Notes under the pieces: generated by a model
What the model saw: the letters and a program-made list of their open reading frames with translations, nothing else
What the model was told of the DNA's origin: nothing
The model's database searches: none
Source of the DNA: a virus
Lineage: Duplodnaviria > Heunggongvirae > Uroviricota > Caudoviricetes
Strand: one strand, 5' to 3'
DNA: 64,000 nucleotides
Virus record (IMG/VR): IMGVR_UViG_2541047913_000007
Made by a program: the position numbers and the translations under genes
Shown here: piece by piece, positions 11,726 to 39,995 of the stretch
Position numbering within the stretch: position 1 is the first letter of the stretch
Layout: each line of letters begins with the position of its first letter

Positions 11726-12281
11726 CCTCCTGAGGGTTGGTAATTAAGGAGTTCTCCACGGGTCAGGTGGAGTGCGTGCGCCGGACACGGGTGAGCATCC
11801 GGCACTGACAGTTTACTGAAAGGATATGTCCCTGAAAAGTCAGGGCATAACGCGAAAGCGCACGGCGAAATTGGTCTCTCTGTACGGTGTCGTTAAATTT
11901 AGTTCGACCGTGCACTTCCGGTTGTGGCACTCCGCGAAATGGCGCGGCGGTAAGTATGGCTGGGGTTTCCTCCATTGCTCCAGAAAATGCACCGGGTTGT
12001 CAGGTTGACCATACGCTTAAGTGACAGCCCCGCCACAATACCCATGCGTAGTCTTTGGTGGCATCAGTTCTACTCCGTGACTGCTCTGCCACCCTTTTTA
12101 AAGTGAATTTTGTGATGCGGTGAATGCGGCTATGCGCACGCGGAACAGTTAAAACCGTAAAGTGGTCTTTTACGGGGCGTAACGGGCATCCTTCTGTATT
12201 CCGGCGTTAATTGTTAACTGGTTAACGTCACCTGGAGGCACCAGGCACTGCATCACAAAATTCATTGTTGAGGACGCGATA

Positions 12282-12470
12282 ATGGAAACGTTATTACCAA
12301 ACGTTAATACGTCTGAAGGTTGTTTTGATATTGGAGTTCTGCTCAGTAACCGGGAGTTTACTGAAGATGCCATTAAGATGAGAAAATATGAACCTTATCT
12401 TCTCAATGATAATTCCATACTTTCCAGAATTGCCCTTCTTGAACTTGGTATTATCGGAGAACAGCAGTGA
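12282..12470 (+). CDS. Hypothetical small protein (62 aa)
   Basis: ATG preceded by gagga; ATGA overlap with next ORF. Confidence 0.4.
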   Translation: METLLPNVNTSEGCFDIGVLLSNREFTEDAIKMRKYEPYLLNDNSILSRIALLELGIIGEQQ

Positions 12471-12655
12471 CTTCAGCATTTGCACTGGTGATGACCGTTT
12501 TTCTTATAACGGGTGAGCCACAAAATGTGATTACCGGAATTTATGACAGTAAGTCATCCTGCATTCAGGTAAGGGACGAACAAAAAATCCCCGGTGAATG
12601 CCTCCCGTTAAAAAAAGTATCGCTGTACCTGAATAACGAAACACCGGCTGGATAA
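12467..12655 (+). CDS. Hypothetical small protein with hydrophobic N-terminus (62 aa)
   Basis: MTSAFALVMTVFLITG N-terminal hydrophobic segment; translationally coupled to upstream ORF. Confidence 0.4.
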   Translation: MTSAFALVMTVFLITGEPQNVITGIYDSKSSCIQVRDEQKIPGECLPLKKVSLYLNNETPAG

Positions 12656-12747
12656 CCCGCCAGCCATATTAACGCCATACCAACGGATTAAAAATGCCAG
12701 CAATGGCAGGAATTTGTTCATCCTTAAAATGGTTATGAGGTTTATCA

Positions 12748-15186
12748 ATGAACGCTGATAAAGAAGAAATTGCACTATATTACGAAGCCAAAAATGACAA
12801 AGTCAGAAAACGCCTTGGGATTAAAGGTGGTTTTTACTGGCGCACAGCAAAAAAATTATCGGTTGCAATATCACGCGGTGTTGCTGCAATGGACGATGCC
12901 GGATTTGACGAAGAGGATTTTAAAAAACCCATCCGCGTCCATTTACCCGTTGTGAATGACCTTCCACCGGAAGGTGTGTTTGATACTGAATTCTGCAACC
13001 GATACGAAAAAGGCGGAGAAGATGGTATCACAATGATATTTATAGCGCCCTCCCCCTCAGTTCAGGACAAACCAGCCAGCACTGACAATACCAACGTCAA
13101 TGGCGAAGACATGGCTGAGATTGAGGATAATATGCTCCTGCCGATTTCCGGTCAGGAACTGCCCATTCGCTGGCTTGCGCAACATGGCAGCGAAAAACCG
13201 GTAACGCACGTTTCACGAGAAGAACTTCAGGCATTACATATCGCACGAGCTGAAGAACTACCGGCTGTTACTGGCCTGGCTATTTCCCACAACACAAAGC
13301 TGCTCGACCCGCTGGAGATTCGCGACCTTCACAAATTGGTACGCGACACTGACAAAGTTTTCCCTAATCCCGTTAATTCCAGTCTGGGGTTCATGACTGC
13401 TTTTTTCGAAGCATACCTGGACACTGACTATACCGATCGAGGTCTGCTGACAAAAGAGTGGATGAAAGGAAATCGTGTTTCTCGCATCACCCGCACGGCT
13501 TCCGGTGCAAATGCCGGTGGCGGAAATAAAACCGATCGTAATCCTGACTTAGTACACACTCTCGATACTCTGGATGTGGAGGCTGCAGCAGCCACGCTTC
13601 CGATGGATTTTAATATTTATGAAATTCCCGGGAGCGTTTATCGTCGCGCAAAAGAAATCGTCCTGAAAAAAGAAAGTCCGTTCAGGGAATGGTCCGCAGC
13701 ACTTCGCGCAACCCCTGGTATCCTGGACTATTCCCGCGCAGCTATTTTTGCACTTATCCGAAGCGCCCACCCTGAGTTTTATCACTACCCGGGGCGCCTT
13801 CAGGGGTATATCAATGCCAACCTGACAGAAACTGATCACGAGAATCCCACAGCTGAAACGCTCATGGCTGCCCGGCATACACCGGAAAAAGATATCCTGG
13901 AAGAAATTAACGGCGGACTGGCTGCTGAGTGCAAAACAGAAGAAGAAAAAAATGATGAAGATAACCCGCAACCATCTGGCGCAATGGCAGATGAACAGGC
14001 AACGGCTGAAACAATGGCAGCGGATACAGTTGAACATCATCAGGACCCGCAGCCGCTGGATGACAAGTCACAGGTAAAAGTTACCGCTGACGAAGTAAAC
14101 AAAATTATGCAGGCAGCCAATATCAGCCAGCCTGACGCCGATAAGTTGCTTGCTGCCTCTCGCGGAGAATTTGTTGCAGGGATTAGCGACCCGAATGATC
14201 CGAAATGGGTAAAGGGGATTGAAACCCGCGATTCTGTAAACCAGAACCAGCAAGAATCGGAACAGAACGACCAGAAAGCGGAACAAAACAGCCCAAATGC
14301 GTTACAAAACGAGCCAGAAACGAAACAGCCTGAACCAGTGGCGCAACAGGAAGTGGAAAAAGTCTGCACCGCCTGCGGTCAGACCGGCGGCGGCAACTGC
14401 CCTGATTGTGGCGCGGTGATGGGCGACGCAACATACCAGGAAACATTCGATGAAGAGTATCAGGTTGAAGTTCAGGAAGATGATCCGGAGGAAATGGAAG
14501 GCGCTGAACATCCACACAAGGAGAATGCTGGCAGCGCTCAGGATCACGCCAGCGATAGTGAAACTGGCGAGACGGCAGATCCCTTAATTACGGTGAACGG
14601 TCATCACGTTATCACATCCACCAGCAGGTTGTGGCACCATCTGATGATTGACCTTGAAACCATGGGAAAAAATCCTGATGCCCCGATCATCTCAATAGGT
14701 GCAATATTTTTCGATCCGCAAACCGGAGATATGGGACCGGAATTTAGTAAGACTATCGATCTGGAAACTGCTGGCGGGGTCATTGATCGGGACACCATTA
14801 AATGGTGGCTTAAGCAATCACGCGAAGCGCAATCTGCCATTATGACCGATGAAATCCCGTTAGATGATGCACTGTTACAATTGCGGGAATTTATCGACGA
14901 AAACTCCGGTGAATTTTTTGTTCAGGTCTGGGGAAATGGAGCCAACTTCGACAACACGATTTTGCGCCGTTCATACGAACGGCAGGGGATCCCCTGCCCG
15001 TGGAGTTACTACAACGATCGCGATGTACGCACAATCGTTGAGCTGGGGAAAGCCATAGACTTCGATGCCAGAACTGCTACCCCATTCGAAGGTGAGCGCC
15101 ATAATGCACTTGATGACGCCCGTTATCAGGCAAAATACGTTTCAGCTATCTGGCAAAAACTGATCCCGAGTCAGGCTGATTTTTAA
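12748..15186 (+). CDS. Large early protein with acidic linker, CxxC zinc ribbon and C-terminal DEDDh (DnaQ-like) 3'-5' exonuclease domain
   Basis: 812 aa; [16 protein letters not shown]; exonuclease motifs [33 protein letters not shown]. Confidence 0.7.
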
Positions 15187-15257
15187 TGTTCAACCGTCGT
15201 CGGTTGCAATTGGTATTCTGCAACCGGCGTTCATCTGATGTAAGAGATAAAGAATCG

Positions 15258-15509
15258 ATGAGCGAAGTAATCATGATCGTCTCTCCTGGCAAATGGGTAT
15301 CCGAAGAGCAGTTAATTGCACTTAAAGGAATCAAAAAGGGAACGCTAAAAAAAGCCAGGGAAAAATCGTTTATGGAAGGAAGGGAATATAAGCATGTCGC
15401 TCATGACGGTATGCCATGGGATAACAGTCCATGCTTTTACAACCTGGAAGAAATTGATCGCTGGATTGAGCGCCAGGCATCTGCAAGACCAAGACGTCAT
15501 CTTGCTTGA
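15258..15509 (+). CDS. xis: Excisionase-like protein
   Basis: 83 aa immediately upstream of integrase. Confidence 0.5.
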   Translation: MSEVIMIVSPGKWVSEEQLIALKGIKKGTLKKAREKSFMEGREYKHVAHDGMPWDNSPCFYNLEEIDRWIERQASARPRRHLA

Positions 15510-15528
15510 CTAAAAGCAACACGAACCA

Positions 15529-16824
15529 ATGAGAGAAGCTGAAATGAAATATCCGACAGGCGTGGAAAACCATGGAGGGAAATTACGTATCTGGTTTGTT
15601 TATAAAGGTGTAAGAGTCCGGGAAAATCTTGGGGTTCCTGACACAGCAAAAAACAGACGCATTGCAGGTGAGCTACGCGCCTCTGTTTGTTACGCAATAA
15701 AAACTGGCGCTTTCGACTATGCAAAACAGTTTCCCGCCTCACACAATCTGGAAAAATTTGGTGAGGCCCGACAAGATTTAACCATAAAAGAACTGGCTGA
15801 AAAATTTCTGGCACTGAAAGAAACTGAAGTCGCAAAAACGTCACTCAACACGTACCGTGCCGTCATCAAAAATATTCTGAGCATAATCGGTGAAAAAAAT
15901 CTTGCATCATCGATTAATAAAGAAAAATTGCTGGCAGTACGTAAAGAGTTACTGACTGGATACCAGATCCCCAAAAGTAACTATATTGTTACACAACCAG
16001 GGAGATCGGCTGTTACCGTAAATAATTACATGACAAATCTTTACGCCGTGTTCCAGTTTGGTGTTGATAACGGTTATCTGGCAGACAATCCATTTAAGGG
16101 GATCTCACCATTAAAGGAGTCGAGAACCATCCCGGATCCACTTTCGCGGGAGGAGTTTATCCGCCTTATTGACGCGTGCAGAAATCAGCAAGCCAAAAAT
16201 TTATGGTGTGTTTCCGTTTATACTGGGATTCGCCCTGGTGAACTCTGTGCGCTTGGATGGGAAGATATAGATCTGAAAAATGGAACAATGATAATCAGAA
16301 GAAATCTGGCAAAAGACCGTTTTACAGTACCAAAAACACAGGCGGGAACCAATCGTGTGATTCACCTTATTAAGCCCGCAATCGACGCTCTCCGGAGTCA
16401 GATGGCACTAACGAGACTGAGCAAAGAGCATATCATCGATGTTCACCTCAGAGAATTCGGCAGAACAGAGAAACAAAAATGTACCTTTGTTTTTCAACCT
16501 GAAGTGTCAGCGAAAGTAAAAAATTATGGTGACCATTTTACCGTTGACTCAATAAGGCAGATGTGGGACGCAGCGGTAAAGCGTGCCGGAATCCGCCATC
16601 GCAAATCGTATCAGTCGAGACACACTTATGCCTGCTGGTCGTTAACAGCAGGAGCTAACCCGGCATTCATTGCAAACCAGATGGGCCATGCAGATGCGCA
16701 AATGGTGTTTCAGGTGTACGGGAAATGGATGTCAGAAAATAATAATGCGCAGGTAACGCTGTTAAATACACAGTTAAGCGAGTTTGCCCCAACCATGCCC
16801 CATAACGAAGCAATGAAAAATTAA
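15529..16824 (+). CDS. int: Tyrosine site-specific integrase
   Basis: 431 aa; C-terminal RHTYACW and HAD...MVFQVYGKW catalytic-region motifs; terminal position next to host gene. Confidence 0.85.
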   Translation: MREAEMKYPTGVENHGGKLRIWFVYKGVRVRENLGVPDTAKNRRIAGELRASVCYAIKTGAFDYAKQFPASHNLEKFGEARQDLTIKELAEKFLALKETEVAKTSLNTYRAVIKNILSIIGEKNLASSINKEKLLAVRKELLTGYQIPKSNYIVTQPGRSAVTVNNYMTNLYAVFQFGVDNGYLADNPFKGISPLKESRTIPDPLSREEFIRLIDACRNQQAKNLWCVSVYTGIRPGELCALGWEDIDLKNGTMIIRRNLAKDRFTVPKTQAGTNRVIHLIKPAIDALRSQMALTRLSKEHIIDVHLREFGRTEKQKCTFVFQPEVSAKVKNYGDHFTVDSIRQMWDAAVKRAGIRHRKSYQSRHTYACWSLTAGANPAFIANQMGHADAQMVFQVYGKWMSENNNAQVTLLNTQLSEFAPTMPHNEAMKN

Positions 16825-27105: not shown

Positions 27106-27219
27106 ATGACCACACAATATGGATTTTTTATCGATTCCAGCCGCTGTACTGGCTGTAAAACCTGCGAACTGGCGTGCAAAGATTTTAAAGTTGGTTACGT
27201 ATCGTTTAAAATCAATTAG
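27106..27219 (+). pseudogene. ynfG: ynfG truncated after ~27 codons by prophage 2 insertion (ferredoxin-type Fe-S subunit)
   Basis: MTTQYGFFIDSSRCTGCKTCELACKD then unrelated sequence and stop after 37 aa. Confidence 0.8.
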
Positions 27220-27312: not shown

Positions 27313-27634
27313 CCCAATACCAATCCGAATCCACCCTTTGTCATCATTGAGAAATGGCAAGGAAGAAAAGGATGTTACTGCACGATTTGACAAATCCGCC
27401 AGAGCTATCGCATACTGATCGCACTGAACAAATAAGCGGTCTCCGCACCCGATAGCTTTGCGGCTTTTTTATGCCTGCAATTTGGCATAGTTACATCCGT
27501 ACAAAGGTCGGGTGGAGAGGCGTAATACAACACCCGCAAGGGGAATATGCCCAGAGCTTCTTATTTGGCTCAGTTGACACCCGACCGCCAGCTACTAACT
27601 GGCGGTTATAAACTAAACAAATAAGGAGGTCATC

Positions 27635-27919
27635 ATGACCAGTCAACTCATCCCCGTATTCAACGGTTCTATCTCAAACCAAGCAGCCCTTCTATGCAAT
27701 GCTCGCAATCTACACGCTTTCCTTGGGGTTGGTAAACGCTTTGCATCGTGGATAACAGAACGTATTGCTGAATATGGTTTCGTTGAAAAACAGGACTATA
27801 TGATTGCTTCCCAAATTCGGGAAGCAAAAGGTAGAGGCGGTCACAACCGCAAGGAATACCACCTCACCCTCGACACAGCCAAAGAGCTTGCGATGGTTGA
27901 CGACTGCGTCCAATACTGA
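27635..27919 (+). CDS. AntA-domain antirepressor-like protein, short copy (94 aa)
   Basis: MTSQLIPVFNGS...EYHLTLDTAKELAMV; identical RBS ataaggaggtcatcATG as second copy. Confidence 0.6.
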   Translation: MTSQLIPVFNGSISNQAALLCNARNLHAFLGVGKRFASWITERIAEYGFVEKQDYMIASQIREAKGRGGHNRKEYHLTLDTAKELAMVDDCVQY

Positions 27920-28168
27920 CTATACTCCGCGCCGAGGCCTCGAAAACCTCCCAAAAGCGGATTAAACCAACCCCGTCAGTGTTGGATTTTTTATGCCTGT
28001 TATTCAGTGATAGCACAGTGTGCGGTCACATCCCCGATCAATGTCGGGAGGGCGACGAATACAACACCCGCAAGGGGAATAAGTCCGCGGTATCTTTTGG
28101 GCCGTTTCGAGCCTCCCGGCACCACATCTTGTGGTGGCATTTCTCGAAAAAAGCCAAAGGAGGTCATC

Positions 28169-28798
28169 ATGACCACTCAACTCATCCCTGTGTTTGAAGG
28201 TACAATCTCAAATGAACCTACGCTTCTGGTGAACGCGCGTGATTTGCATGGATTTTTAGAGGTAGGTAAAGATTTTTCTAACTGGATACGGGCCAGGCTA
28301 AACGAGTATGGATTCGTAGAAAATTTAGACTACATTCTATTTTCGCCAAATTTGGCGAAAACTCCAGGCCGCCGCCGCAAGGAATACCACCTCACCCTCG
28401 ACACAGCCAAAGAGCTTGCGATGGTTGAACGTAACGAAAAAGGTCGCCAGATCCGCCGCTACTTCATCGAGTGCGAAAAGAAACTTCGCAACATTCAGCC
28501 AGTACAAGCAGAACCACAGCCGCAATTCACAGCCGAGGAAATCATCCTCCTTTGCTACATGCAGCTCTGGATGGAAAAAGCCCAGGACCTCAGCAAACAC
28601 CTGTATCCCATCATGAAAGAGCTGAACTCCTCATACACGAACAAGCTGTATGACATTGCGTTTGAGACCATCTACATGGTGACGAAGAACAGAGATGCGT
28701 TACTGAGGGAAGTAACACGTCTCGACATGTCAAGTTCCGTTATCCAACGAGCCATGCCAATGCTGAAAAGCCTGCGGGCAAGGCAATTCGAATTCTGA
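28169..28798 (+). CDS. AntA/AntB-type antirepressor-like protein (209 aa)
   Basis: MTTQLIPVFEGTISNEPTLLVNARDLHGFLEVGKDFSNWI...KEYHLTLDTAKELAMVER. Confidence 0.65.
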   Translation: MTTQLIPVFEGTISNEPTLLVNARDLHGFLEVGKDFSNWIRARLNEYGFVENLDYILFSPNLAKTPGRRRKEYHLTLDTAKELAMVERNEKGRQIRRYFIECEKKLRNIQPVQAEPQPQFTAEEIILLCYMQLWMEKAQDLSKHLYPIMKELNSSYTNKLYDIAFETIYMVTKNRDALLREVTRLDMSSSVIQRAMPMLKSLRARQFEF

Positions 28799-28802
28799 AA
28801 CT

Positions 28803-28828
28803 AAAGGAGCTTCGGCTCCTTTTTTCAT
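28803..28828 (+). terminator. Intrinsic terminator after ant copy 2 (ggagcttcggctcc plus T6)
   Basis: Perfect hairpin and T-tract. Confidence 0.65.
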
Positions 28829-28994
28829 GCCTGAACGACAACGCCGCTGAAATCGAAGAGTTAATACAATAAAGAGAAGAGCTCAGTACATTAGATAAAC
28901 ATTTTTTATCATTATCTCATTGCCTTTATTCAAAAAAATAGTTACATAACGTTACTAGGTAAAATGCAAACCCTCGCTATTTTTATCAGATTGT

Positions 28995-30221
28995 ATGCCG
29001 GTAACTATAACAAAAATCAGAACTGGAGAAGATGTTTTGTCAGCAGCCATTCACCGCATTGAATGGTTGTTTGAAACATTCTCTTCTGTATGTTTATCTT
29101 TTTCTGGCGGTAAAGATTCCACTGTACTTTTCCATCTTGTAGCCGAAGTGGCCTACAGGAAGAAACGTCGTTTTTCTGTATTGTTCATTGACTGGGAAGC
29201 CCAGTATCAATGCACCATTGATCATATACAGAAGATGCGGATGATGTACCAAGATGTAACAGATACCTTTTACTGGGTTGCACTTCCCCTGACGACAGTA
29301 AATGGTGTCTCGCAGTTTCAGCCTGAGTGGATATGCTGGGAGCCCGGTGTAGAGTGGGTTCGACAGCCACCGGAAGATGCTATTACTGATATGGCGTATT
29401 TCCCCTTTTACCGCTACGCCATGACTTTTGAAGAATTTGTCCCAGCTTTTTCTTCCTGGTTCGCAAGTAACCAATGTAGCGTGGCAATACTGACTGGAGT
29501 CCGCGCGGATGAATCTCTTAACAGATTTATGGGACTGGTTTCCCAACGAAAACTGAGATATGCAGATGATAAACCCTGGACCACGGCGTCACCTGAAGGT
29601 TTTTACTACACCATGTATCCGCTGTATGACTGGAAAACCAACGATATCTGGGTATATAACGCTAAAACCTGTGCAATCTACAATCCTCTGTATGATTTGA
29701 TGTACCGTGCAGGCATTCCTCTACGTAATATGCGTGTCTGTGAGCCTTTTGGCCCGGAACAGCGTAAGGGACTATGGCTTTATCATGTTCTGGAGCCAGA
29801 AACTTGGGCACGGATGTGTGAACGAGTATCTGGTGCTGCCAGTGGGGCTCTTTATGCCAATGAAAGCGGGGCCTATTTTGCCCTGCGTAAACGGATGTCA
29901 AAACCATCCCATCATACCTGGCGCAGCTATGCGTTCTTCCTGCTGGACGTAATGCCGGAAAGAACGGCTGAACACTACCGCAACAAGATAGCAGTTTACC
30001 TGCGCTGGTATCAGAACCGGGGATTCCCGGATGATATCCCGGATGAACAGGAAAATGATCTGGGCTGCCGGGATGTTCCCTCCTGGCGACGTATTTGTAA
30101 GACTCTCATAAAGAATGATTTCTGGTGCCGAACGCTCTCCTTCAGCCCCAACAAACCCCGGCACTATGAACGTTACCTGCAGCGTATGAATGAAAGGAGG
30201 AAGGAATGGGGAATTCTGTGA
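28995..30221 (+). CDS. ibrA: IbrA-like PP-loop ATP pyrophosphatase (PAPS reductase family with C-terminal extension)
   Basis: 408 aa; PP-loop SFSGGKDS near N-terminus. Confidence 0.65.
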   Translation: MPVTITKIRTGEDVLSAAIHRIEWLFETFSSVCLSFSGGKDSTVLFHLVAEVAYRKKRRFSVLFIDWEAQYQCTIDHIQKMRMMYQDVTDTFYWVALPLTTVNGVSQFQPEWICWEPGVEWVRQPPEDAITDMAYFPFYRYAMTFEEFVPAFSSWFASNQCSVAILTGVRADESLNRFMGLVSQRKLRYADDKPWTTASPEGFYYTMYPLYDWKTNDIWVYNAKTCAIYNPLYDLMYRAGIPLRNMRVCEPFGPEQRKGLWLYHVLEPETWARMCERVSGAASGALYANESGAYFALRKRMSKPSHHTWRSYAFFLLDVMPERTAEHYRNKIAVYLRWYQNRGFPDDIPDEQENDLGCRDVPSWRRICKTLIKNDFWCRTLSFSPNKPRHYERYLQRMNERRKEWGIL

Positions 30222-30850
30222 CACCAGAGGTGGAGGTGCTGAGCAAGATGATTCGACAGTACTTCAGTCAGGAACAATCTGAAGAGAAAACCATACAGGC
30301 CCTGAACCATCTCCGCTGCGTACTCCATGAGATCAGCCCCTTTGCTCAAGAACCAGTGGACTGTGTGCTGTGGGTAAAAGCGGATGAAATTGTCGCTAAC
30401 GATTATAATCCCAATGTCATGGCCCCAAGCGAAAAAAAATTACTGAAACAATCTCTGGAAAAAGACGGTTTTACTCAACCAATTGTTGTTTCGGAAGAAA
30501 CAAGCCATTACCTGGTGGTGGATGGTTTTCATAGGCAGTTACTAGGTAGAAGAACAGTTACTGGAAAACGCCTGAAAGGCTGGCTACCAGTAACCTGTAT
30601 TAATCCAGACCGAAAGGGACAAACCTCACGTATTGCCGCGACTATCCGACATAACAGAGCCAGGGGGAAACACCAGATAACCTCAATGTCTGATATTGTC
30701 AGAGATCTTTCACGTCTTGGCTGGACTGATGAACGTATCGGAACAGAACTGGGGATGGACCAGGATGAAGTTCTGAGGTTAAAGCAGATTAGCGGGCTAA
30801 CGGAGTTATTTCAGCAGGCAGATTTCAGCCCTGCATGGACTGTTACATAA
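30206..30850 (+). CDS. ibrB: IbrB-like ParB/sulfiredoxin-fold nuclease-domain protein
   Basis: 214 aa; ANDYNPN and VVDGFHR ParB-N-like motifs; 16-nt overlap with ibrA-like. Confidence 0.65.
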   Translation: MGNSVTPEVEVLSKMIRQYFSQEQSEEKTIQALNHLRCVLHEISPFAQEPVDCVLWVKADEIVANDYNPNVMAPSEKKLLKQSLEKDGFTQPIVVSEETSHYLVVDGFHRQLLGRRTVTGKRLKGWLPVTCINPDRKGQTSRIAATIRHNRARGKHQITSMSDIVRDLSRLGWTDERIGTELGMDQDEVLRLKQISGLTELFQQADFSPAWTVT

Positions 30851-30938: not shown

Positions 30939-31463
30939 CTACCTCAGATCACCTAATAATATATCAAGATTATTTTGCGCATTAATGCTATTCGCCATTA
31001 CTGTTGCTGCTTCTGGCAACTTTCCAAGAGCAATAAATATATTCTTAAGGCTGATTGGAATTGATGAACCATGCGGATCGCGCCACTCACCGCAAATTCT
31101 GTGAGTTTCATCACAAAGCCTGAACGCATCCCAACCTCCATATTGACCAAAAATTATGTCCATTGACTCTATTTCTGCGGGCGATAACTCCCCCAGCTCA
31201 TCAACAGAAGAAAATGTACGCCACATTTCAACCTTATGATCCGCTACATCAGATATCCATGATTCCCACGGACTGTACTCGTTTTCACTTCCATCCTTAA
31301 CCAAAGAATATGTCTGCGATAAAACGGGTCCTTTGTTCATAGAGAAATAATGATCACCACTAATGGGAAAACCATACAACTCCATTGCTTTGCGGTCAGA
31401 GAGATACATCAGCTTAATGAAACGCATAGATCCGCCATGTTTTTTCAGCAAATACGCTGCCAT
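30939..31463 (-). CDS. Panacea (DUF4065, SocA-like) domain protein
   Basis: 174 aa; N-terminal MAAYLLKKHGGSMRFIKLMYLSDR typical of DUF4065. Confidence 0.55.
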   Translation of the reverse strand: MAAYLLKKHGGSMRFIKLMYLSDRKAMELYGFPISGDHYFSMNKGPVLSQTYSLVKDGSENEYSPWESWISDVADHKVEMWRTFSSVDELGELSPAEIESMDIIFGQYGGWDAFRLCDETHRICGEWRDPHGSSIPISLKNIFIALGKLPEAATVMANSINAQNNLDILLGDLR

Positions 31464-31613: not shown

Positions 31614-34600
31614 TTAATCCACTCCCACTTTTTTGTTGTACTCGCGGTTAAAGCGATCCACGGCAACCTTCATATCCCGCTCTACCGATTTCACCATCGC
31701 CGCCTGCTGCGCCAGACTGAGAGAACTGTCGGCATAAATGGCATCGCGCTGTTTGCGCAAATCCTTCAGTCTCTTCCGGGTATCCTGCATAAGCCCGTTC
31801 ATCAACAATTTTCCGTTGTTCTCGTCAATGAACGCCGTTCTTTCTGCACCGGTCAGACTCTTCAGCTCTGCGTGATACTGCGCAACCTCTGTCATCCGGT
31901 CGTACATCTTCTGCTGGTCTGCATACGGCATCACCTCACCCGAAATTTTCCCCAGGAAGGGCACCTGCTGCTCCGGTATATCAATACCGTTCAGCGATTT
32001 CACCGCCGCATCTGTGGTTTTGGAAATGAAGCGCCCTGTCCCTCCGGAGATATAGTCAATCCAGAATTTCAGCGATTCCGGTGTGATATCCACCGCGCCG
32101 GGACGATACTGGCTGCCACCTGAGAACGCATTCAGCCAGGATGCAAACGCCTTGTACGCCTCAGGCGTTGAACGTCTGCCCAGTTGGCTGTCCGGTTTCG
32201 GTGTGCCAAATGGCATGTTCTCCTGGTAAATCTGCGCCCCCATGAAGTTTTCATTCATGGCAAGGTTCGCAAACGGACGCAGAATGGTCGGCGCTGCATT
32301 TTTCAGCAATGCCCCGGACAGTGTTTCCGACGTTTCACTGCCCACAGGACTGAATGCCCCCAGGATACCACCGACAACATTACCGGCAGCACGTGAAGCA
32401 GTCAGGTCGCCCGCTGCCACACCTTCAGCAGTATGCCCGAGCAGGAAGAAAACGTTGTACCCGTAAGGCAGAGGAATACTCCAGTACTCTCCGGCCTTGC
32501 CCCCGAACACCGATTTCATAATGACGAGGTTACGCTCTTTCACATGAGACGGCACCTTGTCATACCAGTTAACCCCGTCATCATCCTCCCCCGCAACACT
32601 GCGGTTAAGCGAGCCAAGCAGATAACCCGCTCCCACAGCTGCAAGCGCGATTTTCTGCGGTACATTGAGATTCTTCCAGCGAAGGCGCTCCGGTAACGGC
32701 CCGTCGCCATTAAGATGTCCGAGCGTTCTCACCAGGTTTGCGGTCCCCTGAATGCTGGCGTTGGCAAACATATACAGCGAGTTCATCAGCGCTCCCTGCT
32801 CACCACGACGGTTAAAGTTCACCGTCATGTTTTTGGCAAGAGATGCCGCCTGCTGGCGTGACAAACCGGCATCACGGGCGTGTTTATAGGCAGAAAGACG
32901 CAGAGCGTTTTCAACCGCGCCGTTGGCATCCTCGACCAGGTTCAGGAACGAATGCCATGCACCGATACTCTGGCCTTTCCATCCTCCCTTCGCCAGCGAT
33001 ACAAGGCGATCCATTTCCTTCTGCTGGCCTTCAAGGTCACCCATGTTAAACCAGCCGGTTTTACCTCCATCCTCAACAAACTCTTTCCACACCTTCTGCC
33101 ACTGCGCACCGTTGCCCGTGAGGGTTTTACCACGCAGACTGGCGTATACGGCAGACATGGCAGACCGGCTGTCTTTCACCACAGCCAGGGCGGATAAGTT
33201 ATCCAGCCCTTTCAGTTTACCGTCGCTCCTTCCCTGCTCAGCCTTCAGGTTCATCACCGCCGTCTGCACGTCACGGATGAAGTTACTGACCAGAAATTCC
33301 GGGTTATACGACGTGTTCACCGTTGCCAGGAAACGGTTAACTTTCCCCAGCGTACGGATTACGGCGTTACTGGTTTCCGGCCCCATGTTCTTCATCGCAC
33401 GCATCAGGCGCGGGTCATGGAGTTTGATGTAGTAAGTTTTGCCGTCCTTTTTGGTGGTGAAGTAGCGATCCGCCATCATTGCCATAGGCACCGGACGTTC
33501 AACAACTTCGCGACGGGTTTCGCCGGTTTCCGGATCAACACGCTCTGCAATCGCCCGCATGGTGTCCGGTTTGTCATCAGTGAATACCTGCCAGTAATCC
33601 TTATCGGGATTATCCTGCACCAGTTTCAGGAAGGCGTTACCCACTTCGTTTTTGCGATTGCGGATCAGCGATTCGCTCAAATCCTGTATCGCCTGAGTGG
33701 AAGGAGACTGTGCGCGGGATGCACGCCCCATGGCCTGCCTGCTTTCACGTCCGCCGATGGTGAAGCCCTTACCTGTACGGGGCAGTGACACCACACCGTC
33801 AACATCCTGACCTTTCAGGGGAACGTAGTAACGGTAGGCGTTCTGCCAGGCATCCACCACACCGCTCTCTTCCAGTCCGGCCTCACGGATAAGCTCACGG
33901 CGACGGGCCAGCATATCGTCAACAATCCCTGCCAGACGGTCATACTGTGCCTGTTTGCCACTGTTACGCACACGCTGCATGATTTCCGCCGCTTCCGCGT
34001 TGGTCATCCCCGAACCGCCGTCCGGCATTTTCGGGTTGATTTTCGCGATATGCGCGTTACGTTCCGGCGCGTGACGGGCGTAGAGGTACTCATCCAGATC
34101 GGCCTGCGCAATTTTGTAGTCCGCCAGTAATTTAGCCAGTGGCTGAACGTAGCGCTCCTTCATCACGTTCAGGTCGTTTTCCGCCTTCCCGTGGAAGAGT
34201 TCTTCCGCCATATAAGCGTTGTTACTGTCGTCTATTTTTCCGCCAGTTTTACGGATATTCTCCTGAACAGCTTTCAGCACCTGGAATTTATCCTGCATCT
34301 GGCGCACAAAACGCGATGCAATTGTCTCTTCCGGTGTCAGACTGCTGGTACGGGAGTAATACGGCCCCTTGCGAATATCTTCAGGATAGAGTATTTTATC
34401 TACAGAGCCGCGATAAGAACGCTCCTCTTTGGGCAATTGGAGCCCACTGTACTGAGGGTTATCGCGGCTTAATTTCTCCTTCCGGTAAAGCGTTAATCCA
34501 GCCATTTCCATACTTTTCAGCTTTTTCCCGTTTTCCGTACCGTAAACAGATGCCACCTTGTTAATTTCCAGACGTTTATCTGTCGCCTTCATATGCACTG

Positions 34601-37600
34601 CCGAGACGACCGGATCACCATTTTTATCCACAGCATCAAGCAGCATCACAACCGCATTTCTTTCTGTCGCGGAACGGTAAATTGCATCCGGATTGTGCAT
34701 CAGTTCCGGAAGTCTCTCGATAACATCCATTGGCACCACATGTTTCACGCCATTGGTAGCCTTCCGCACAGTGTCGCGGGAGATAACCAGCGGCAAATCT
34801 GGTGCGCCAAGGTGGCGCAATACCGGCGGCGTACGCCCGATGTTTGCAGTCATTGCACCAGAACGTAACGACTTCATCATTCTGGCAAGGTCATCACGAT
34901 AACGCTCGCCCTCACCTTCCGGCACTTTGAACGGATCAGGCTTACCGCTACGGGAGTACTGAGACGATGCGCCAGCGCCATCCTCACGCGGCGTGTAACC
35001 TTCCCGCACACGCTGGCCTAACGTGCGAATAGTTTCGCGAACAAGTCTGATATCGTTCAGCTCTGTCGGCTTCAGTAACCCCGTGCGACGCAGTACCCCT
35101 TTGACCAGGGCAACAACACGCTCCCACGCCGCCACAAATTTATTCGGCTGTTTCTCCGCCATATGTGCCAGAAATTCACCTGCCTGCACTTCCGGTGATT
35201 CCTTACCATAAGACGCATCAACCTTACGCCAGGCGTCACGGATGGTGGCGTTATCACTGTCACGGGTTTTCAGTACGGTCTTAATAATCGTCTGATATTC
35301 CGCTGGCGTGACTACATGCTCCATTGCATGGTGAATAATCTCGTGACGTAACTTCTCGCGAACGGTCCGCCCGTCAGGGATGTTATCCGCCACCAGGACA
35401 ATTTCACGTTTATCCGGACGATAGAACGCATGCACCCTGCCGTAACCGTCGAACGATTCACCCGCCAGCGCTTCAGCCTCTTTCTGTGACTTCACCACGC
35501 GGACCTTCAGGTCACTGTCCTTAATGCCACTCATCACGCCACGGGCAACCGCTTCAACCTGCGGGACCGGGCTGCCTTTGGCTTCCGCACTGCGGTTAAC
35601 ATCCGAAATGAGATTGCCTTCAGGTGTGCGGGTCACGCCCTTACGGGAATAAAACGCAACGCCCTTGTCCGTCTCACGGGTTTTCAGCGTACTGAACAGG
35701 TGATCGAATGCATCACGAATACCGCCATCCAGTTCCGCATTCGTCGGATAAGCCCAGGTGTTATCTGTGTTGTGCTCAGGTGCCTTACGGATATTGACCA
35801 GATAATCATTCTCCACGCCAGCCGTACGCGCTTTATCCTGAACATAACGCTCAAAGGCACGCGCCGCCATTTCAACATCCGTTGACCAGTACGGTTTTGA
35901 GCGCACCTCATCGAGAAGCGCTGAACGACGCGGCATGTCACTGCTGTTGATCGCTTTCATCACGCCTTTAAACGCGTCGTAAACCTCCTGACGTACCGGA
36001 TATTCCGCATCAACATATCTGCCGTCTTTAAATACGCGCCCGGCACGCTGTGCTTCCGTCATATAGTCGCCACCTGACGTGATCTTCCCGTCAGTGGAAA
36101 CATCATAACGACCAAAATAATTATCCAGTGAATGGAACCATTCGTGGGCCAGCGCCCCCGGTCCGTTACCTTTTGTCAGGTTGATTGCCACCTCACCCGG
36201 CTCATAGTGTGCCGCCGCCTTACCCTTACCACGGGCACCAAAAGCAAGCCCAAGACGACCGTTCAGAGAAAGCGCTTTTGTCGGCACGTTCAGCACATCA
36301 GCCAGGTCATGCAGCGAGTCATAAGCCCGGTTCAAATCAGCCTGACGACGCGGACCTTCCACATAATTACCAAACTGCACACCACGAAAACCAAACGCAT
36401 CACTGAACTGCTCCGGCGAAACATCCCCCTTGCGGCGTTCTGGTCCGGTACGATCGCGGTTGGTGGCGTTACGCTGCTCCTCACGCGAAATCTCCCGCAT
36501 CTCCTTCACATGACGAACAAGCTCATCACGATGTGAATCAATGTACTTACGCGCATCACTGGCTGACTTAAAGCCACCTCTCACCCGCATTTTGTTTTTG
36601 CCGTAAGCGATAAAAATATCGCCACTACGGGTATTCCGGTAAACGTCAAAGCTGATTTTGTCATCTGGTGACGGTGCTGTTTTTTCATCACCTTTCGCCC
36701 GTGACTTTTCCTCCTGCTCTGCAAACCAGGCTTTCGCCTTTGTCAGTAATTCATCCCTGCTTTCCGAGAAAAAGAGGTTACTCCCCTTATTGTCCTTATT
36801 GCGCAGTGAATAAAGTTTCTGTGGCGGATCGTAACGCTTCCCTCCGGCCGCCTGATACACACCGGATACCACCCGATAAGCAGAAGCCTTGTCCATCTGT
36901 GAAGGTGGCAGCGTGCGTAACAGTTGCCAGGTATCCGCATAACGGGAAGGCATTCTTCCCTCCATCCACTCAGCAAGCCGTCCGGCAGTCACTTTTCCTT
37001 CCAGCATTCCCGCCACGCTTGTGCGGATGCTCTTTACACTCTCCACCCACTTCACCGCATTGAGTTTCGTTTTCGCGGGAATATCACTGCGGTACAGCGC
37101 AATCATTGCCAGTGTGTCAGCGTCGGCCCCTTCGTTCGCCAGTTTTGCATAGTCCGGTTTCGGGAACACTTTGCTCAGCGGCTGCGTGAAATAATCCCTG
37201 TCTTCCAGCGTTTTACCCAGTGTTTCGGCAAGCTGTGCATAACGGTGTTTTGCCGCGCCCTTAATCTCCTCACCAAAGTCTTCAATTTTTGCACCACGCG
37301 CCTGCTGGTGAGTGCTCGGTTTATCTACCGGCACCGGCACCGGCACCGGCACCGGCACCTCAGTATCCGGAACATCGGTTATGGTCTGGCGATTATCCCC
37401 GGTCTGTCTGCGCGCTTCTGCCTGCTGTGCCAGTTCCGGAAGGGAGTCACGAACCATACGAGGGAGTGATTCAGGATGTGGCATATCAACCCCACGCTGT
37501 TCAGGTGCAGGAAGTCCTTCACGCACTGGTGCTGTGGCGTTCTGCTCATCCGGTGATGGCAGACCACGACGAACCGGTTCGCCCTCCAGTATTTCCCCCT

Positions 37601-39995
37601 GGCGACCAGCGGCATTTTCCGGTGCCTGCGCACGTCCTTTCTGGAAACTCTGGCCCTTCACCTCACCGGTTGTGGTAAAACGACCACCACGTCCGGCCTG
37701 ATTTTCATCCGGCGTACGCGCCACTTCTCCTGGTAACGGATATCCCTGTCCGGGATGAATATCGCCGGGAGCGGGAAGGCGTGGACGCTCAGTTAACTCC
37801 TGTGCTGTCGGACCGGCATCACCTTCAGCCATCTGTGAACGTACAAGCTCCTCTGCCGTCGGCGCGTTGCCACGGGCAAGGCGGGCCTGCACTTCTGTAT
37901 CATCCCCCGTGAAACCACGGAATCGCGGGTCACGCATGAACGCGGGCTGCTCCATCGGTTCAGCATCAGCAATACGCTCTCCGTCAGCCAGGGTGTTAAT
38001 GGTCTCCGTTGCCACATCTTCAGAGAACGCAGGATTATCCATTTCAACGGCATACTGATTCTCGCCTTTCTTCACTACGGACGGTTTCAGGCCGGTGGCG
38101 CTGGCATTGCGGAAAACGTCGCTCCCCAGAGCACTTTTTTCATCCGTGAAATAACGGTTGTCCGGACGCACCTTTTCAATGCGTTCTGCTGGTCTGGACG
38201 CACCACTCCCGTTAATTTCAATACGAACTTCATCCGGATCGCGGAACCGCACCGTCGGGTAAATACTCCCGTCGCCATCATCCGCATTTTCCGGCTGTGG
38301 CTGTGCCTCCGGTCTGGCCTCCTGCTGAGGGCGAAGCACATCACGGATAGCCTGTAACTGCTGCTCTTCAGTATCAGTACGCCCTTCCTTCAGGCTGAGT
38401 TTTCGGTATTCCTCAAGCAGTTCAGGGCGCGGCTTCGCCTTCAGCTCATCCATCACCGCCTGTCGCTTCGCCTGTTCATCCAGTTCATTTAACAGCTGGC
38501 TGGCGGCTTCCCGGCGATGAACGGCAGACGTGTCTCCCTCAGGTGCCATATCCGCATCAGCATACTGTTCCAGAAGTTGCTCGCGATTCATGCCCTGCAT
38601 GGATTCGCGATGCTGTGCCACCGGATCAGCCGGTTCGGGTTGCGGGGCTGCTTCACCCTGCTGTACGACTTCAGCCTCACGCATGGCGGTTTCTTCTGCG
38701 GCCTGACGTTTTCCACGATATCCGGCAACCGCACCGAACGGTGCGCCCATCGCTGCACCAAGAGCGGCTCCTTCGATCGTTGCGTCAGCTACCCCCTCCC
38801 ATGGTGATATATCCATTCCGGCAGTCTCACGCAACGTCATATTTTCCTGGTAACGCGAATAGCCGCCCTGCGCCGCATTAATCGTCCCCTGTTCCGTGGC
38901 ATTTCTGACAATGCCGCTTTTAACGGTCTTCGCCGTGCCCCGCATCGCCAGATTAAACAACTGAGCATCGCCCAGTTTTGCCGCCATGGCATTCACAGCC
39001 AGCAATTCAGGATCGGTTGCCAGCTGCGCGCGCACCTCATCGGCAACACGCTCTTTTGCCAGATCCATTTTCTGGCGATCAGTAAGCTGTGCGTGCTGCG
39101 GATCTGCATCAATTGACAAAAACGTCTGCTGAAATTTCGGGGACTTCGCCAGCTCAGAGTAATCCGCGTTAAGAACAGAGTCTGCTGCTGCCATTGCACT
39201 CTGCCCCTGTGCGCTGGCTGAGGAATGGGTGATCAGGCCTGCCTGGAATAAATCCGGCATTTTTTTATCGACAGCTTCTGCTGCCAGTGCGGTAGCTCTT
39301 TCCGGCTGCATCCCTGCCGCAATGTATTTTTTCTCCAGCCCGGCGGTCAGCACTTTTCGCAGAGTGACTTCACCCAGCTTTTTAGTCACACCGCCTGCAA
39401 CCATATCAGGTACAAGGGCACCAATCAGGTTTACGCCCTTCGCCACCCAGACCGCAGAATCATCATATCCTTCAGTCATCGGTGTATTCAGCGCCCGCTG
39501 CGCCCCCGGCGACATCTTGCCAGTCAGCCATTCATCCGAGGCTTTAGCGCCGCCACTGACTGCCTTGCCTGTGACCTTCAGACCTTTACCGACAGTATCA
39601 GTAACCGCATTTTTTCCATCAGGCAGAGTGTCGATGACCTCATCCGCCCCCTTGCTGCCACCGACAAAAATATCCTGAACAGTTGCGACTCCCGGCAGCC
39701 CCATACGGCTGAACTCATTTAAAATACGCGCCCCTGTTTTTACCGGGTTCTGAATCATCGCATCACCGAGTCCACGGGCCATTTCCCCTGCCCCCCGGAC
39801 GGACTGGGCGACACCTTTCCCCATAGTTGGCAATACATCGCCCAGGCTGAACGACGTGCTGTTGTCCTTCCAGCGATTGGGATCGGAGAAAAACGCATCA
39901 TAGCTGTCAGTCTCGCCCGGCTGCTGAATGTTCAGGCTGTTGCGGTTCTGGTTGCCAAATTGCGCTTCAGGGCGCTGTTCATCGGAATAAGCCAT
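31614..39995 (-). CDS. Giant 2793-aa virion-associated/polyvalent-type protein with two HExxH zincin-like motifs and acidic Pro-rich linkers
   Basis: Single uninterrupted ORF; ALAHEWFHSLDNYFG and LRHEIIHHAMEHV; PVPVPVPVPV tract. Confidence 0.75.
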   Translation of the reverse strand: MAYSDEQRPEAQFGNQNRNSLNIQQPGETDSYDAFFSDPNRWKDNSTSFSLGDVLPTMGKGVAQSVRGAGEMARGLGDAMIQNPVKTGARILNEFSRMGLPGVATVQDIFVGGSKGADEVIDTLPDGKNAVTDTVGKGLKVTGKAVSGGAKASDEWLTGKMSPGAQRALNTPMTEGYDDSAVWVAKGVNLIGALVPDMVAGGVTKKLGEVTLRKVLTAGLEKKYIAAGMQPERATALAAEAVDKKMPDLFQAGLITHSSASAQGQSAMAAADSVLNADYSELAKSPKFQQTFLSIDADPQHAQLTDRQKMDLAKERVADEVRAQLATDPELLAVNAMAAKLGDAQLFNLAMRGTAKTVKSGIVRNATEQGTINAAQGGYSRYQENMTLRETAGMDISPWEGVADATIEGAALGAAMGAPFGAVAGYRGKRQAAEETAMREAEVVQQGEAAPQPEPADPVAQHRESMQGMNREQLLEQYADADMAPEGDTSAVHRREAASQLLNELDEQAKRQAVMDELKAKPRPELLEEYRKLSLKEGRTDTEEQQLQAIRDVLRPQQEARPEAQPQPENADDGDGSIYPTVRFRDPDEVRIEINGSGASRPAERIEKVRPDNRYFTDEKSALGSDVFRNASATGLKPSVVKKGENQYAVEMDNPAFSEDVATETINTLADGERIADAEPMEQPAFMRDPRFRGFTGDDTEVQARLARGNAPTAEELVRSQMAEGDAGPTAQELTERPRLPAPGDIHPGQGYPLPGEVARTPDENQAGRGGRFTTTGEVKGQSFQKGRAQAPENAAGRQGEILEGEPVRRGLPSPDEQNATAPVREGLPAPEQRGVDMPHPESLPRMVRDSLPELAQQAEARRQTGDNRQTITDVPDTEVPVPVPVPVPVDKPSTHQQARGAKIEDFGEEIKGAAKHRYAQLAETLGKTLEDRDYFTQPLSKVFPKPDYAKLANEGADADTLAMIALYRSDIPAKTKLNAVKWVESVKSIRTSVAGMLEGKVTAGRLAEWMEGRMPSRYADTWQLLRTLPPSQMDKASAYRVVSGVYQAAGGKRYDPPQKLYSLRNKDNKGSNLFFSESRDELLTKAKAWFAEQEEKSRAKGDEKTAPSPDDKISFDVYRNTRSGDIFIAYGKNKMRVRGGFKSASDARKYIDSHRDELVRHVKEMREISREEQRNATNRDRTGPERRKGDVSPEQFSDAFGFRGVQFGNYVEGPRRQADLNRAYDSLHDLADVLNVPTKALSLNGRLGLAFGARGKGKAAAHYEPGEVAINLTKGNGPGALAHEWFHSLDNYFGRYDVSTDGKITSGGDYMTEAQRAGRVFKDGRYVDAEYPVRQEVYDAFKGVMKAINSSDMPRRSALLDEVRSKPYWSTDVEMAARAFERYVQDKARTAGVENDYLVNIRKAPEHNTDNTWAYPTNAELDGGIRDAFDHLFSTLKTRETDKGVAFYSRKGVTRTPEGNLISDVNRSAEAKGSPVPQVEAVARGVMSGIKDSDLKVRVVKSQKEAEALAGESFDGYGRVHAFYRPDKREIVLVADNIPDGRTVREKLRHEIIHHAMEHVVTPAEYQTIIKTVLKTRDSDNATIRDAWRKVDASYGKESPEVQAGEFLAHMAEKQPNKFVAAWERVVALVKGVLRRTGLLKPTELNDIRLVRETIRTLGQRVREGYTPREDGAGASSQYSRSGKPDPFKVPEGEGERYRDDLARMMKSLRSGAMTANIGRTPPVLRHLGAPDLPLVISRDTVRKATNGVKHVVPMDVIERLPELMHNPDAIYRSATERNAVVMLLDAVDKNGDPVVSAVHMKATDKRLEINKVASVYGTENGKKLKSMEMAGLTLYRKEKLSRDNPQYSGLQLPKEERSYRGSVDKILYPEDIRKGPYYSRTSSLTPEETIASRFVRQMQDKFQVLKAVQENIRKTGGKIDDSNNAYMAEELFHGKAENDLNVMKERYVQPLAKLLADYKIAQADLDEYLYARHAPERNAHIAKINPKMPDGGSGMTNAEAAEIMQRVRNSGKQAQYDRLAGIVDDMLARRRELIREAGLEESGVVDAWQNAYRYYVPLKGQDVDGVVSLPRTGKGFTIGGRESRQAMGRASRAQSPSTQAIQDLSESLIRNRKNEVGNAFLKLVQDNPDKDYWQVFTDDKPDTMRAIAERVDPETGETRREVVERPVPMAMMADRYFTTKKDGKTYYIKLHDPRLMRAMKNMGPETSNAVIRTLGKVNRFLATVNTSYNPEFLVSNFIRDVQTAVMNLKAEQGRSDGKLKGLDNLSALAVVKDSRSAMSAVYASLRGKTLTGNGAQWQKVWKEFVEDGGKTGWFNMGDLEGQQKEMDRLVSLAKGGWKGQSIGAWHSFLNLVEDANGAVENALRLSAYKHARDAGLSRQQAASLAKNMTVNFNRRGEQGALMNSLYMFANASIQGTANLVRTLGHLNGDGPLPERLRWKNLNVPQKIALAAVGAGYLLGSLNRSVAGEDDDGVNWYDKVPSHVKERNLVIMKSVFGGKAGEYWSIPLPYGYNVFFLLGHTAEGVAAGDLTASRAAGNVVGGILGAFSPVGSETSETLSGALLKNAAPTILRPFANLAMNENFMGAQIYQENMPFGTPKPDSQLGRRSTPEAYKAFASWLNAFSGGSQYRPGAVDITPESLKFWIDYISGGTGRFISKTTDAAVKSLNGIDIPEQQVPFLGKISGEVMPYADQQKMYDRMTEVAQYHAELKSLTGAERTAFIDENNGKLLMNGLMQDTRKRLKDLRKQRDAIYADSSLSLAQQAAMVKSVERDMKVAVDRFNREYNKKVGVD
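37327..37356. repeat. Hexanucleotide tandem repeat (ACCGGC)x5 inside giant gene, encodes (PV)5
   Basis: accggcaccggcaccggcaccggcaccggc. Confidence 0.8.

Follow-up and report, generated by a model that had tools for sequence, protein, structure and literature searches.

The ibrAB operon is said to have been cloned in 2002 by Sandt, Hopper and Hill from Escherichia coli ECOR-9 as an activator of prophage eib expression. In their account (reportedly J Bacteriol 184:3640), the overlapping genes ibrA and ibrB activated eib jointly and both were required, and Eib activation is said to have been followed mainly as protein. ECOR-9 reportedly has its four eib genes on separate prophages, and the prophages that were transferred are said to have come without the activator. 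The operon itself was reportedly mapped to an 'IbrAB island' around min 35.8 on the K-12 map, said to hold antirepressor homologues and Stx2-prophage-like DNA. The subject here is the gene pair at positions 28995-30850 of the virus record IMGVR_UViG_2541047913_000007, a 64,000-nucleotide stretch of Caudoviricetes DNA (the window, meaning this whole stretch), which a sequence-only reading had described as IbrA/IbrB-like.

Other described systems resemble the pair in architecture. DndB is paired with DndC, and DpdB with DpdA, where base insertion is driven by the DpdB ATPase; fusions of ParB with methyltransferases are enriched in prophages. VirB of Shigella is a cytidine triphosphate (CTP)-binding relative of ParB that counter-silences H-NS, and KorB of RK2 is a CTP-dependent sliding clamp and repressor. 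For IbrAB, PMC7649339, summarizing Sandt, Hopper & Hill 2002, describes Eib expression as enhanced in an ibrB-dependent manner. A search of the literature turned up no biochemical work on IbrAB or on its K-12 counterpart, YbdNM.

Identity of the Gene Pair

Exact-sequence look-up in a collection of 15 billion proteins gave the first open reading frame (ORF) the name 'IbrA n=6 Tax=Enterobacteriaceae RepID=Q8KU24_ECOLX' and the second the name 'IbrB n=3 Tax=Escherichia coli RepID=Q8KU23_ECOLX' (coordinates in Table 1). As judged from these sequences, the genes are almost certainly ibrA and ibrB ("immunoglobulin-binding regulator") themselves and not merely similar to them. The sequence-only reading, in matching the pair to the IbrAB module, had if anything understated the relationship; its two overlapping plus-strand genes are borne out in coordinates, in their 16-nt overlap, and in the motifs that it quoted. 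The sole match in a phage collection was Escherichia phage PhiR5_2 (PV340546, 61.5 kb), which is 99.9% identical over the 2-kb query. Its record annotates the pair as 'IbrA' and 'IbrB, co-activator of prophage gene expression' and gives MG1655 as the host. Identity to the pair in the O157 island is 91% for IbrA and 87% for IbrB.

The genomic surroundings also resemble those of ECOR-9. The proteins are identical by exact look-up, the genes overlap in the same way, and here, as reportedly in ECOR-9, antirepressor genes and Stx-phage-type DNA surround the pair at the ynf locus. The layout of the window, with its ynfG junction, two AntA genes, ibrAB and 933W-type structural genes, closely fits the 'IbrAB island' as reported, and the setting here is very probably the published ibrAB setting. 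It differs in that the island forms the right arm of a complete inducible prophage that itself bears an Eib-like gene. The locus is not new: ibrAB received its name in 2002, automatic annotation already assigns that name, and there is a public record of an identical phage. What is modestly new is that the island is an arm of an intact inducible phage with a candidate target gene.

An Obligate Two-Protein Unit

Homologues of the pair form a large family, with more than 6,800 clusters at 90% identity (E <= 1e-10, among the candidates scored) and 317 clusters at 50% identity (E <= 1e-30). The loci surveyed comprise 80 from viral contigs (IbrA 46-100% identity) and 79 from one genome per species, 159 in all. 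The genome loci come from Enterobacterales, Bacteroidota, Clostridia, Bacilli, Alphaproteobacteria, Verrucomicrobia, Helicobacter, and contigs of Asgard archaeal metagenome-assembled genomes. Every ORF of each locus was re-scored with hidden Markov models of the two families. A same-strand IbrB homologue adjoins IbrA in 77/80 viral and 78/79 genome loci; the four exceptions are all cut by contig ends, so adjacency holds in 155/155 testable loci. Both gene orders occur. IbrA and IbrB are an obligate two-protein unit. Homologues of the pair occur in prophage, plasmid, island and phage settings. In environmental phages the neighbors include replication genes, NinB, NinG, RusA, a C5 methyltransferase, HNH genes, and terminase.

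The two genes are also joined at the level of their reading frames. The 16-nt overlap recurs among many phage and genome homologues. Within the 3' end of ibrA, a perfect AGGAGG Shine-Dalgarno sequence stands 5 nt upstream of the ibrB ATG, which indicates translational coupling.

Three further components recur at these loci and had not been reported; they are the second modestly new element. The first, here called x2, is a family of 132-aa proteins encoded in 44/80 viral loci, between the ibrB-like and ibrA-like genes (viral loci L036-L087). It has no Pfam or PHROG match, and in two genome loci (L125:5848-7035 and L133:6856-8001) it is fused to the C terminus of IbrB, which provides a Rosetta-stone link of x2 to the module. 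The second is a small GNAT-like protein found in 32/159 loci (15 viral, 17 genome), between the pair or just 5' of it; a viral representative exceeds the Pfam GNAT cut-offs, and a genome representative matches weakly, below them. The third is an SNF2-related ATPase of ~420 aa encoded directly 5' of the IbrA homologue in 20/79 genome loci, outside Enterobacterales. The loci with GNAT-like and SNF2-like partners fall within L113-L167 (genomes) and L026-L087 (viral). The window, which carries the minimal two-gene module, encodes none of the three.

Distribution in Escherichia coli

Among 5,426 complete E. coli genomes, 1,930 (36%) carry ibrAB-type pairs at ~84% nucleotide identity, in up to four places per genome; 66 of these places are on plasmids, and others are on islands and in prophages. 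A prophage at the same ynfG junction is found in 55 genomes, and the cassette of antirepressor genes, ibrAB and the Panacea gene in 19. The contexts vary widely. The O157 island copy has a PerC-family regulator downstream and an MkoA/MkoC-like helicase protein upstream, another copy lies on an island of a B2 strain, and a plasmid copy stands beside AraC-type and fimbrial genes. Homology between copies ends at the ORF boundaries and the upstream regions of five contexts cannot be aligned, so the mobile unit is a bare two-gene cassette. The description of the pair as a prophage-end moron fits these data, with a prophage present at the ynfG junction in 55 genomes and ibrAB in just 19 of them.

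In the O157:H7 island, the helicase-type protein (722 aa; L003:5797-8477) matches the PADLOC Mokosh models MkoA (5.5e-44) and MkoC (1e-40). Its gene and a 171-aa ORF lie directly 5' of the island ibrAB.

K-12 has full-length paralogues, YbdN (57% amino acid identity to IbrA) and YbdM (61% to IbrB). The two-domain architectures, gene order and gene overlap are the same. Unlike the pair described here, ybdNM is not phage-borne; it occupies a core chromosomal locus, conserved across Enterobacterales, with ybdL and the divergent LysR repressor gene citR/ybdO, and is repressed in laboratory conditions (PMC9068703). The repressor is the LysR regulator CitR/YbdO, and citR is described as H-NS-regulated (PMC9068703). 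YbdM has been called 'completely uncharacterized', and its over-expression lowers the growth rate by only about 10% (PMC8764527).

Domain Architecture and Conserved Residues

Both domain assignments of the sequence-only reading hold. IbrA belongs to the phosphoadenosine phosphosulfate (PAPS)-reductase/PP-loop ATPase superfamily (PF01507), with an SGGxDS motif and an adenine-nucleotide alpha-hydrolase fold. Its Pfam matches, PAPS_reduct (1.5e-16) and DUF3440 (5e-33), both exceed the gathering cut-offs; the second accounts for the long C-terminal extension that had been remarked on. The first ~240 residues have a PAPS-reductase/FAD-synthase/CysD-type fold with the PP-loop SFSGGKDS at residues 35-42, and the remainder is a basic, alpha-helical DUF3440 domain. 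In fold, its nearest relatives are FAD synthase, CysD, and PAPS reductases, and not the tRNA enzymes. In a viral fold library, IbrA matched just other 'PAPS reductase' proteins, and DUF3440 had no fold match. The catalytic half is acidic, with an isoelectric point of 5.3, and the DUF3440 half is basic, at 9.5; the charge of the latter would be compatible with nucleic-acid binding.

IbrB was described as the ParB-fold partner, with the motifs ANDYNPN (residues 64-70) and VVDGFHR (residues 104-110). Searched as a single sequence, it matches Pfam ParB_N weakly, below the cut-off (1.6e-3; 18.9 bits vs 26.3), but it matches PHROG 2159 'ParB-like' at 5e-91. Its best PHROG outside its own family is phrog_498, the ParB domain of phage DNA methyltransferases (8e-9). 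A family profile built from 57 sequences matches the N-domains of ParB (1.5e-5) and Noc (6e-3) in the PDB, and the alignment to Noc extends through the helix-turn-helix (HTH) region. By these profile comparisons, IbrB can be placed in the ParB/Srx superfamily. The protein stops after the HTH and has no C-terminal dimerization domain.

An alignment of 73 IbrA sequences, reaching down to 28% identity, shows which residues are shared by the family. The GKDS core of the PP-loop, D66, E68, R170, E173, S174, D217, R247 and R277 are invariant, as are three tryptophans. There is no family-wide cysteine (C249 in 58/73, C378 in 57/73, C368 in 46/73, C275 in 19/73, C33 in 13/73), which makes a Dnd-like or thiolase-like sulfur mechanism unlikely and speaks against true PAPS-reductase chemistry. 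This pattern favors a putative ATP-dependent adenylation or adenylyl transfer by IbrA. An iron-sulfur (Fe-S) or persulfide mechanism had been raised by the 4-5 cysteines of close homologues; it was dropped when none proved family-wide in the wider alignment.

In IbrB, D106, G107, H109, R110, the run T146-G154 (TIRHNRARG) and H156 are invariant, and position 155 (K in the window) is variable. A conserved ParB-type HTH, LGMxxDEVLRLKQ, follows C-terminal to the TIRHNRARG run. The nucleotide-binding region has DGxHR (DGFHR), not the GERRxR CTP motif of ParB and VirB.

No informative domain fusions were found among long IbrA homologues, which look like insertions or gene-calling artifacts. Three of them (P0345, P0358 and P0367; 630-671 aa) have a large insert between the PP-loop region and DUF3440. 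The insert has no Pfam match and may be an intein or the result of a mis-joined gene call.

Proposed Mode of Action

It is quite possible, though short of probable, that IbrAB is a ParB-guided, ATP-dependent module for DNA modification or remodeling that de-silences AT-rich cargo such as eib. This reading is drawn from architectural precedents (DndB-DndC, DpdB-DpdA, and the ParB-methyltransferase fusions) and not from family membership. Also in its favor are the constant pairing of the genes, the invariant PP-loop core of IbrA, the likeness of IbrB to ParB and Noc, the DNA-metabolic neighbors in phages, the low GC content 5' of the Eib-like gene, and the H-NS link of the ybdNM repressor gene citR. 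IbrA and IbrB would act on DNA as one obligate unit. IbrB, through its nucleoside triphosphate (NTP)-binding ParB N-domain and its HTH, would bind DNA in a nucleotide-gated manner and recruit or position IbrA. IbrA, through its PP-loop and basic DUF3440 domain, would then spend ATP to adenylate a nucleic-acid group, leading to modification or processing. Sulfur insertion is probably not the reaction, since the IbrA family has no cysteine common to all its members. In a lysogen, AT-rich genes of horizontal origin, eib among them, would be released from silencing as a result. In the many phages, lytic and temperate, whose replication/nin region includes the module, phage DNA would be marked or remodeled by this same activity.

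The precedents share part of this architecture. DndB-DndC and BrxP (type 4 BREX) likewise associate a PAPS-reductase-family PP-loop ATPase with a ParB-superfamily DGxHR-type protein and act on DNA, whereas IbrA bears DUF3440 in place of the accessory domains of DndC or BrxP. In DpdB-DpdA, which carries out 7-deazaguanine modification, and in ParB-DNA-methyltransferase fusions, a ParB-like NTPase is coupled to a DNA-modifying unit. The catalytic partner here is instead a PP-loop ATPase, not a transglycosylase or S-adenosylmethionine-dependent methyltransferase.

Several observations weigh against this proposal. IbrA scores 17.8 bits with the DndC model, against a cut-off of 290, and IbrB has no match to the DndB and DpdB models, so the Dnd and Dpd analogy is architectural only. 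Housekeeping genes (murJ, hup, purA, clpC) surround some of the Clostridia copies, a position that suggests a role in the cell and not in the phage. The ibrAB operon and its vicinity yielded no conserved parS-like site. The structure prediction for IbrB is unusable (mean per-residue confidence, pLDDT, of 45), the alignment being too shallow. Activation of eib could also be indirect.

Membership in the DndC/DndB phosphorothioation system was rejected on the DndC score, a partial PADLOC DndC match (4.5e-5), and the unconserved cysteines. Assignment to BREX or to another PADLOC family was rejected as well. No Dnd partner (DndA, DndD, or DndE), cysteine desulfurase, or restriction partner was found in any neighborhood examined.

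A broader version of the proposal, which is unlikely, would draw the accessory proteins into the scheme. IbrAB/YbdNM, with x2, the GNAT-like protein and the SNF2-like ATPase, would constitute a widespread ParB-guided PP-loop system for a new, non-sulfur covalent DNA modification that differs from Dnd, Ssp, Dpd and methylation. Phages of many phyla would apply it to the DNA of their own genomes, and in E. coli it would have been recruited by prophages and islands to turn on silenced surface-factor genes.

Alternative Explanations

The strongest rival, itself doubtful, is a switch that acts on transcription alone and leaves nucleic acid covalently unchanged. In this view IbrB, as a ParB-family NTP switch like VirB or KorB, would load on DNA and counter-silence H-NS at eib and other AT-rich cargo promoters, and IbrA would just control IbrB, for example by supplying, consuming or attaching a nucleotide. 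VirB counter-silencing and the KorB clamp/repressor offer precedents, and IbrB shares with these proteins a ParB N-domain plus HTH and a phenotype of activation or de-silencing of AT-rich horizontally acquired genes. The homology is at superfamily level only, and IbrB differs in having DGFHR rather than the GERRxR CTP box, in lacking a C-terminal dimerization domain, and in being always paired with an enzyme. The surroundings are consistent with a switch: E. coli copies adjoin PerC or AraC regulators and adhesin or fimbrial genes, AT-rich DNA lies 5' of the candidate targets, and homologues go by 'co-activator of prophage gene expression' or 'transcriptional regulator' in their sources. Activation of gene expression is, moreover, the only phenotype ever reported (Sandt 2002, as cited in PMC7649339). 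A switch nevertheless leaves unexplained why a conserved, catalytic PP-loop partner is constant across all testable loci, why the pair is sited in the replication/nin regions of diverse phages that lack eib, and why GNAT-like and x2 proteins recur. The DGxHR motif of IbrB also stands against a CTP switch of the ParB type.

A pair that modifies RNA or tRNA in the manner of TilS, TtcA or TtuA is improbable. Such a pair would boost the translation of AT-rich, rare-codon cargo such as eib, in keeping with Eib activation having reportedly been scored mostly on protein, and the recurrent GNAT-like partner would have parallels, as GNAT domains act on tRNA in some systems. The fold comparisons point elsewhere, to FAD synthase, CysD and PAPS reductases rather than tRNA enzymes, and the cysteines of Fe-S- or persulfide-dependent thiolases are not conserved. 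Furthermore, the obligate partner is a DNA-type ParB and HTH protein, and the neighborhoods are DNA-metabolic.

Anti-phage defense, by superinfection exclusion or abortive infection with IbrB as a nuclease or NTPase effector and IbrA as its sensor or activator, seems to have an equally small chance of being correct. The sequence-only reading had named defense or counter-defense as a possibility. The pair does sit at a prophage end beside a Panacea (antitoxin-type) gene, with hok/gef in the same prophage, and the O157 island copy adjoins the MkoA/MkoC-like helicase protein. ParB/Srx proteins are known from published work to be nucleases or NTPases in some cases, and PhiR5_2 was in the phage panel of a study of prophage-encoded defense. 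However, PADLOC-DB v2 reports no defense system at the pair; IbrB has no match there, and IbrA has only weak, partial matches to BrxP (1.6e-7, N-terminal 80 aa) and DndC. The architecture goes unmentioned in two recent large defense-discovery papers. It is common in phage contigs of lytic type and in core positions (ybdNM, the Clostridia housekeeping loci), which is atypical of defense genes, and the slight growth cost of YbdM over-expression (PMC8764527) also counts against this reading.

That IbrA is a true PAPS reductase, an auxiliary metabolic gene aiding host sulfur assimilation, is scarcely credible despite the database name 'phosphoadenosine phosphosulfate reductase' and the PHROG category 'moron, auxiliary metabolic gene': assignment as PAPS/APS reductase (CysH) or CysD was rejected on equivalog scores well under the cut-offs (CysH 32.9 vs 154 bits; CysD 33.9 vs 195) and the want of an invariant catalytic cysteine, and the PP-loop is of the canonical ATP type, with an extra DUF3440 and a constant ParB-HTH partner.

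Prophage Setting

The element is a lambdoid, inducible temperate prophage of the 933W/Stx type (PhiR5_2 type), as established from the full PhiR5_2 annotation and the RefSeq annotation of the identical locus. It encodes an N4-gp56-type capsid protein, a giant LPD38 protein, lom, hok/gef, and a tail tip fiber. The structural genes are all on the minus strand and are of 933W type, common to the O104:H4 Stx2 phage; the integrase is at the opposite end of the prophage, outside the window. The features around the pair are collected in Table 1.

Table 1. Features of the ibrAB arm of the prophage and of the Eib-like locus (positions in the window)
Feature	Position	Strand	Remarks
Truncated ynfG (4Fe-4S subunit) and junction	27106..27190	+	RefSeq annotation
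Two AntA-family antirepressor genes, between prophage end and ibrA	27635..28798	+	Pfam; RefSeq annotation of identical locus
AT-rich spacer, presumed ibrAB promoter region	28799..28994	+	196 bp, 34% GC
ibrA	28995..30221	+	408 aa; PP-loop ATP pyrophosphatase (~1-240) and DUF3440 (~240-408)
Translational-coupling junction	30193..30221	+	AGGAGG and ibrB ATG within last ibrA codons
ibrB	30206..30850	+	214 aa; ParB N-terminal domain (NTP-binding, DGxHR variant) and ParB-type HTH
Panacea (SocA-like) domain gene	30939..31463	-	Pfam SocA_Panacea 2.5e-19
LPD38-domain virion protein, last late gene of 933W-type prophage	31614..39995	-	2,793 aa; ORF, annotations
Eib-like YadA-family trimeric autotransporter, candidate IbrAB target	49180..50295	-	371 aa; YadA_anchor 4e-16
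AT-rich region 5' of Eib-like gene, candidate silenced promoter region	50296..51102	-	39% GC, repeats

The chromosome/prophage junction is at ~27190, ~85 bp into ynfG, and prophage-free genomes match only up to that position; the start of ibrA is therefore 1.8 kb inside the ynfG-side end of the prophage. From this end ibrAB is transcribed inward, opposite to the late operon. The orientation opposite to the structural genes and the antirepressor and Panacea neighbors are all as the sequence-only reading had stated.

One of the two AntA-family ORFs is truncated (27635-27919), and the other (28169-28798) encodes AntA and P22_AR_C domains. Each is directly preceded by a leader that matches Rfam RF02221 (sRNA-Xcc1) on the plus strand, at 27506-27594 and 28043-28128 (69 and 73 bits, gathering threshold 53). 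These elements may be cis-regulatory or antisense-targeted RNAs that control antirepressor expression. A hairpin resembling a terminator (28803-28825; AAAGGAGC-TTCG-GCTCCTTT, then a run of T) stands at the start of the spacer and closes off the antirepressor gene. A consensus scan of this ibrA 5' spacer found no strong sigma-70 promoter.

The Panacea (SocA-like antitoxin) gene is convergent with ibrB, lies 150 bp from the end of the giant virion gene, and has no obvious toxin partner. It is a variable neighbor outside the conserved module, and as a functional partner of ibrAB it was rejected, being convergent and missing beside ibrAB in other contexts. A role for IbrB as the ParB of a ParABS partition system was likewise rejected: neither the window ORFs nor the locus annotation shows a parA near ibrAB, the protein has no C-terminal dimerization domain, and there is no conserved palindrome. 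Inverted repeats in the ibrAB operon are not conserved beyond the codon level.

A second, Qin/Kim-like prophage contributes its integrase end to the window (~8900-16800), beside rspBA. Its genes encode a replisome organizer, a YdaT-family protein, ydfA, dicB, ydfD, an exonuclease, an excisionase, and an integrase. The window thus holds parts of two prophages that flank the rsp-ynf chromosomal segment.

The Eib-like Gene

The sequence-only reading had placed an Eib-like adhesin gene about 19 kb from the pair in the same prophage. Co-residence stands, at a distance of 18.3 kb, but the resemblance to Eib is limited to the C-terminal 115 residues, consisting of the YadA anchor and a 47-aa stalk segment. 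In comparisons with the PDB, the anchor matches YadA at 1.7e-18 and the stalk segment resembles EibD at 3.3e-7; the N-terminal 250 aa show no likeness to the solved parts of Eib. Source databases name the protein just 'YadA C-terminal domain-containing protein'.

A YadA-like gene is present in the same prophage in 19/19 genomes with the ibrAB cassette. In related prophages the YadA-like gene occurs unaccompanied by ibrAB, and both are absent from the O104:H4 Stx2 phage. Since the 19 prophages are one lineage, the co-residence of ibrAB and the Eib-like gene is not independent evidence of functional coupling.

The DNA 5' of the Eib-like gene and the ibrA spacer (Table 1) are both lower in GC than the whole window (50%). 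The region 5' of the Eib-like gene contains a duplicated unit of ~175 bp, with the exact 16-mer TACGAAAATTCTGTAT at 50683 and 50860 and no further copy anywhere in the window. Hairpins of the form GGGGAGC...GCTCCCC with T runs are found at 50777-50805 and 50947-50975, and a third copy lies at 48413-48441. Directly 3' of the Eib-like gene is a 166-aa ORF on the minus strand (48621-49121) whose C terminus appears HTH-like by eye. Neither Pfam nor PADLOC gave a match for this ORF, and the collection of 15 billion proteins does not contain its exact sequence.

Implications

The ibrAB locus itself adds little, and the interest lies in the biochemistry of a widespread pair. The pair is very common: an ibrAB-type copy is present in about 36% of complete E. 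coli genomes, and K-12 carries paralogues, ybdNM. Prophages of this type lend themselves to experiment, as each combines the presumed regulator and a candidate target in cis with an MG1655 host and a module of only two genes. If DNA modification or counter-silencing by IbrAB is correct, it would explain how prophages control serum-resistance and immunoglobulin-binding adhesins, and it would assign a function to two long-standing E. coli y-genes, ybdN and ybdM.

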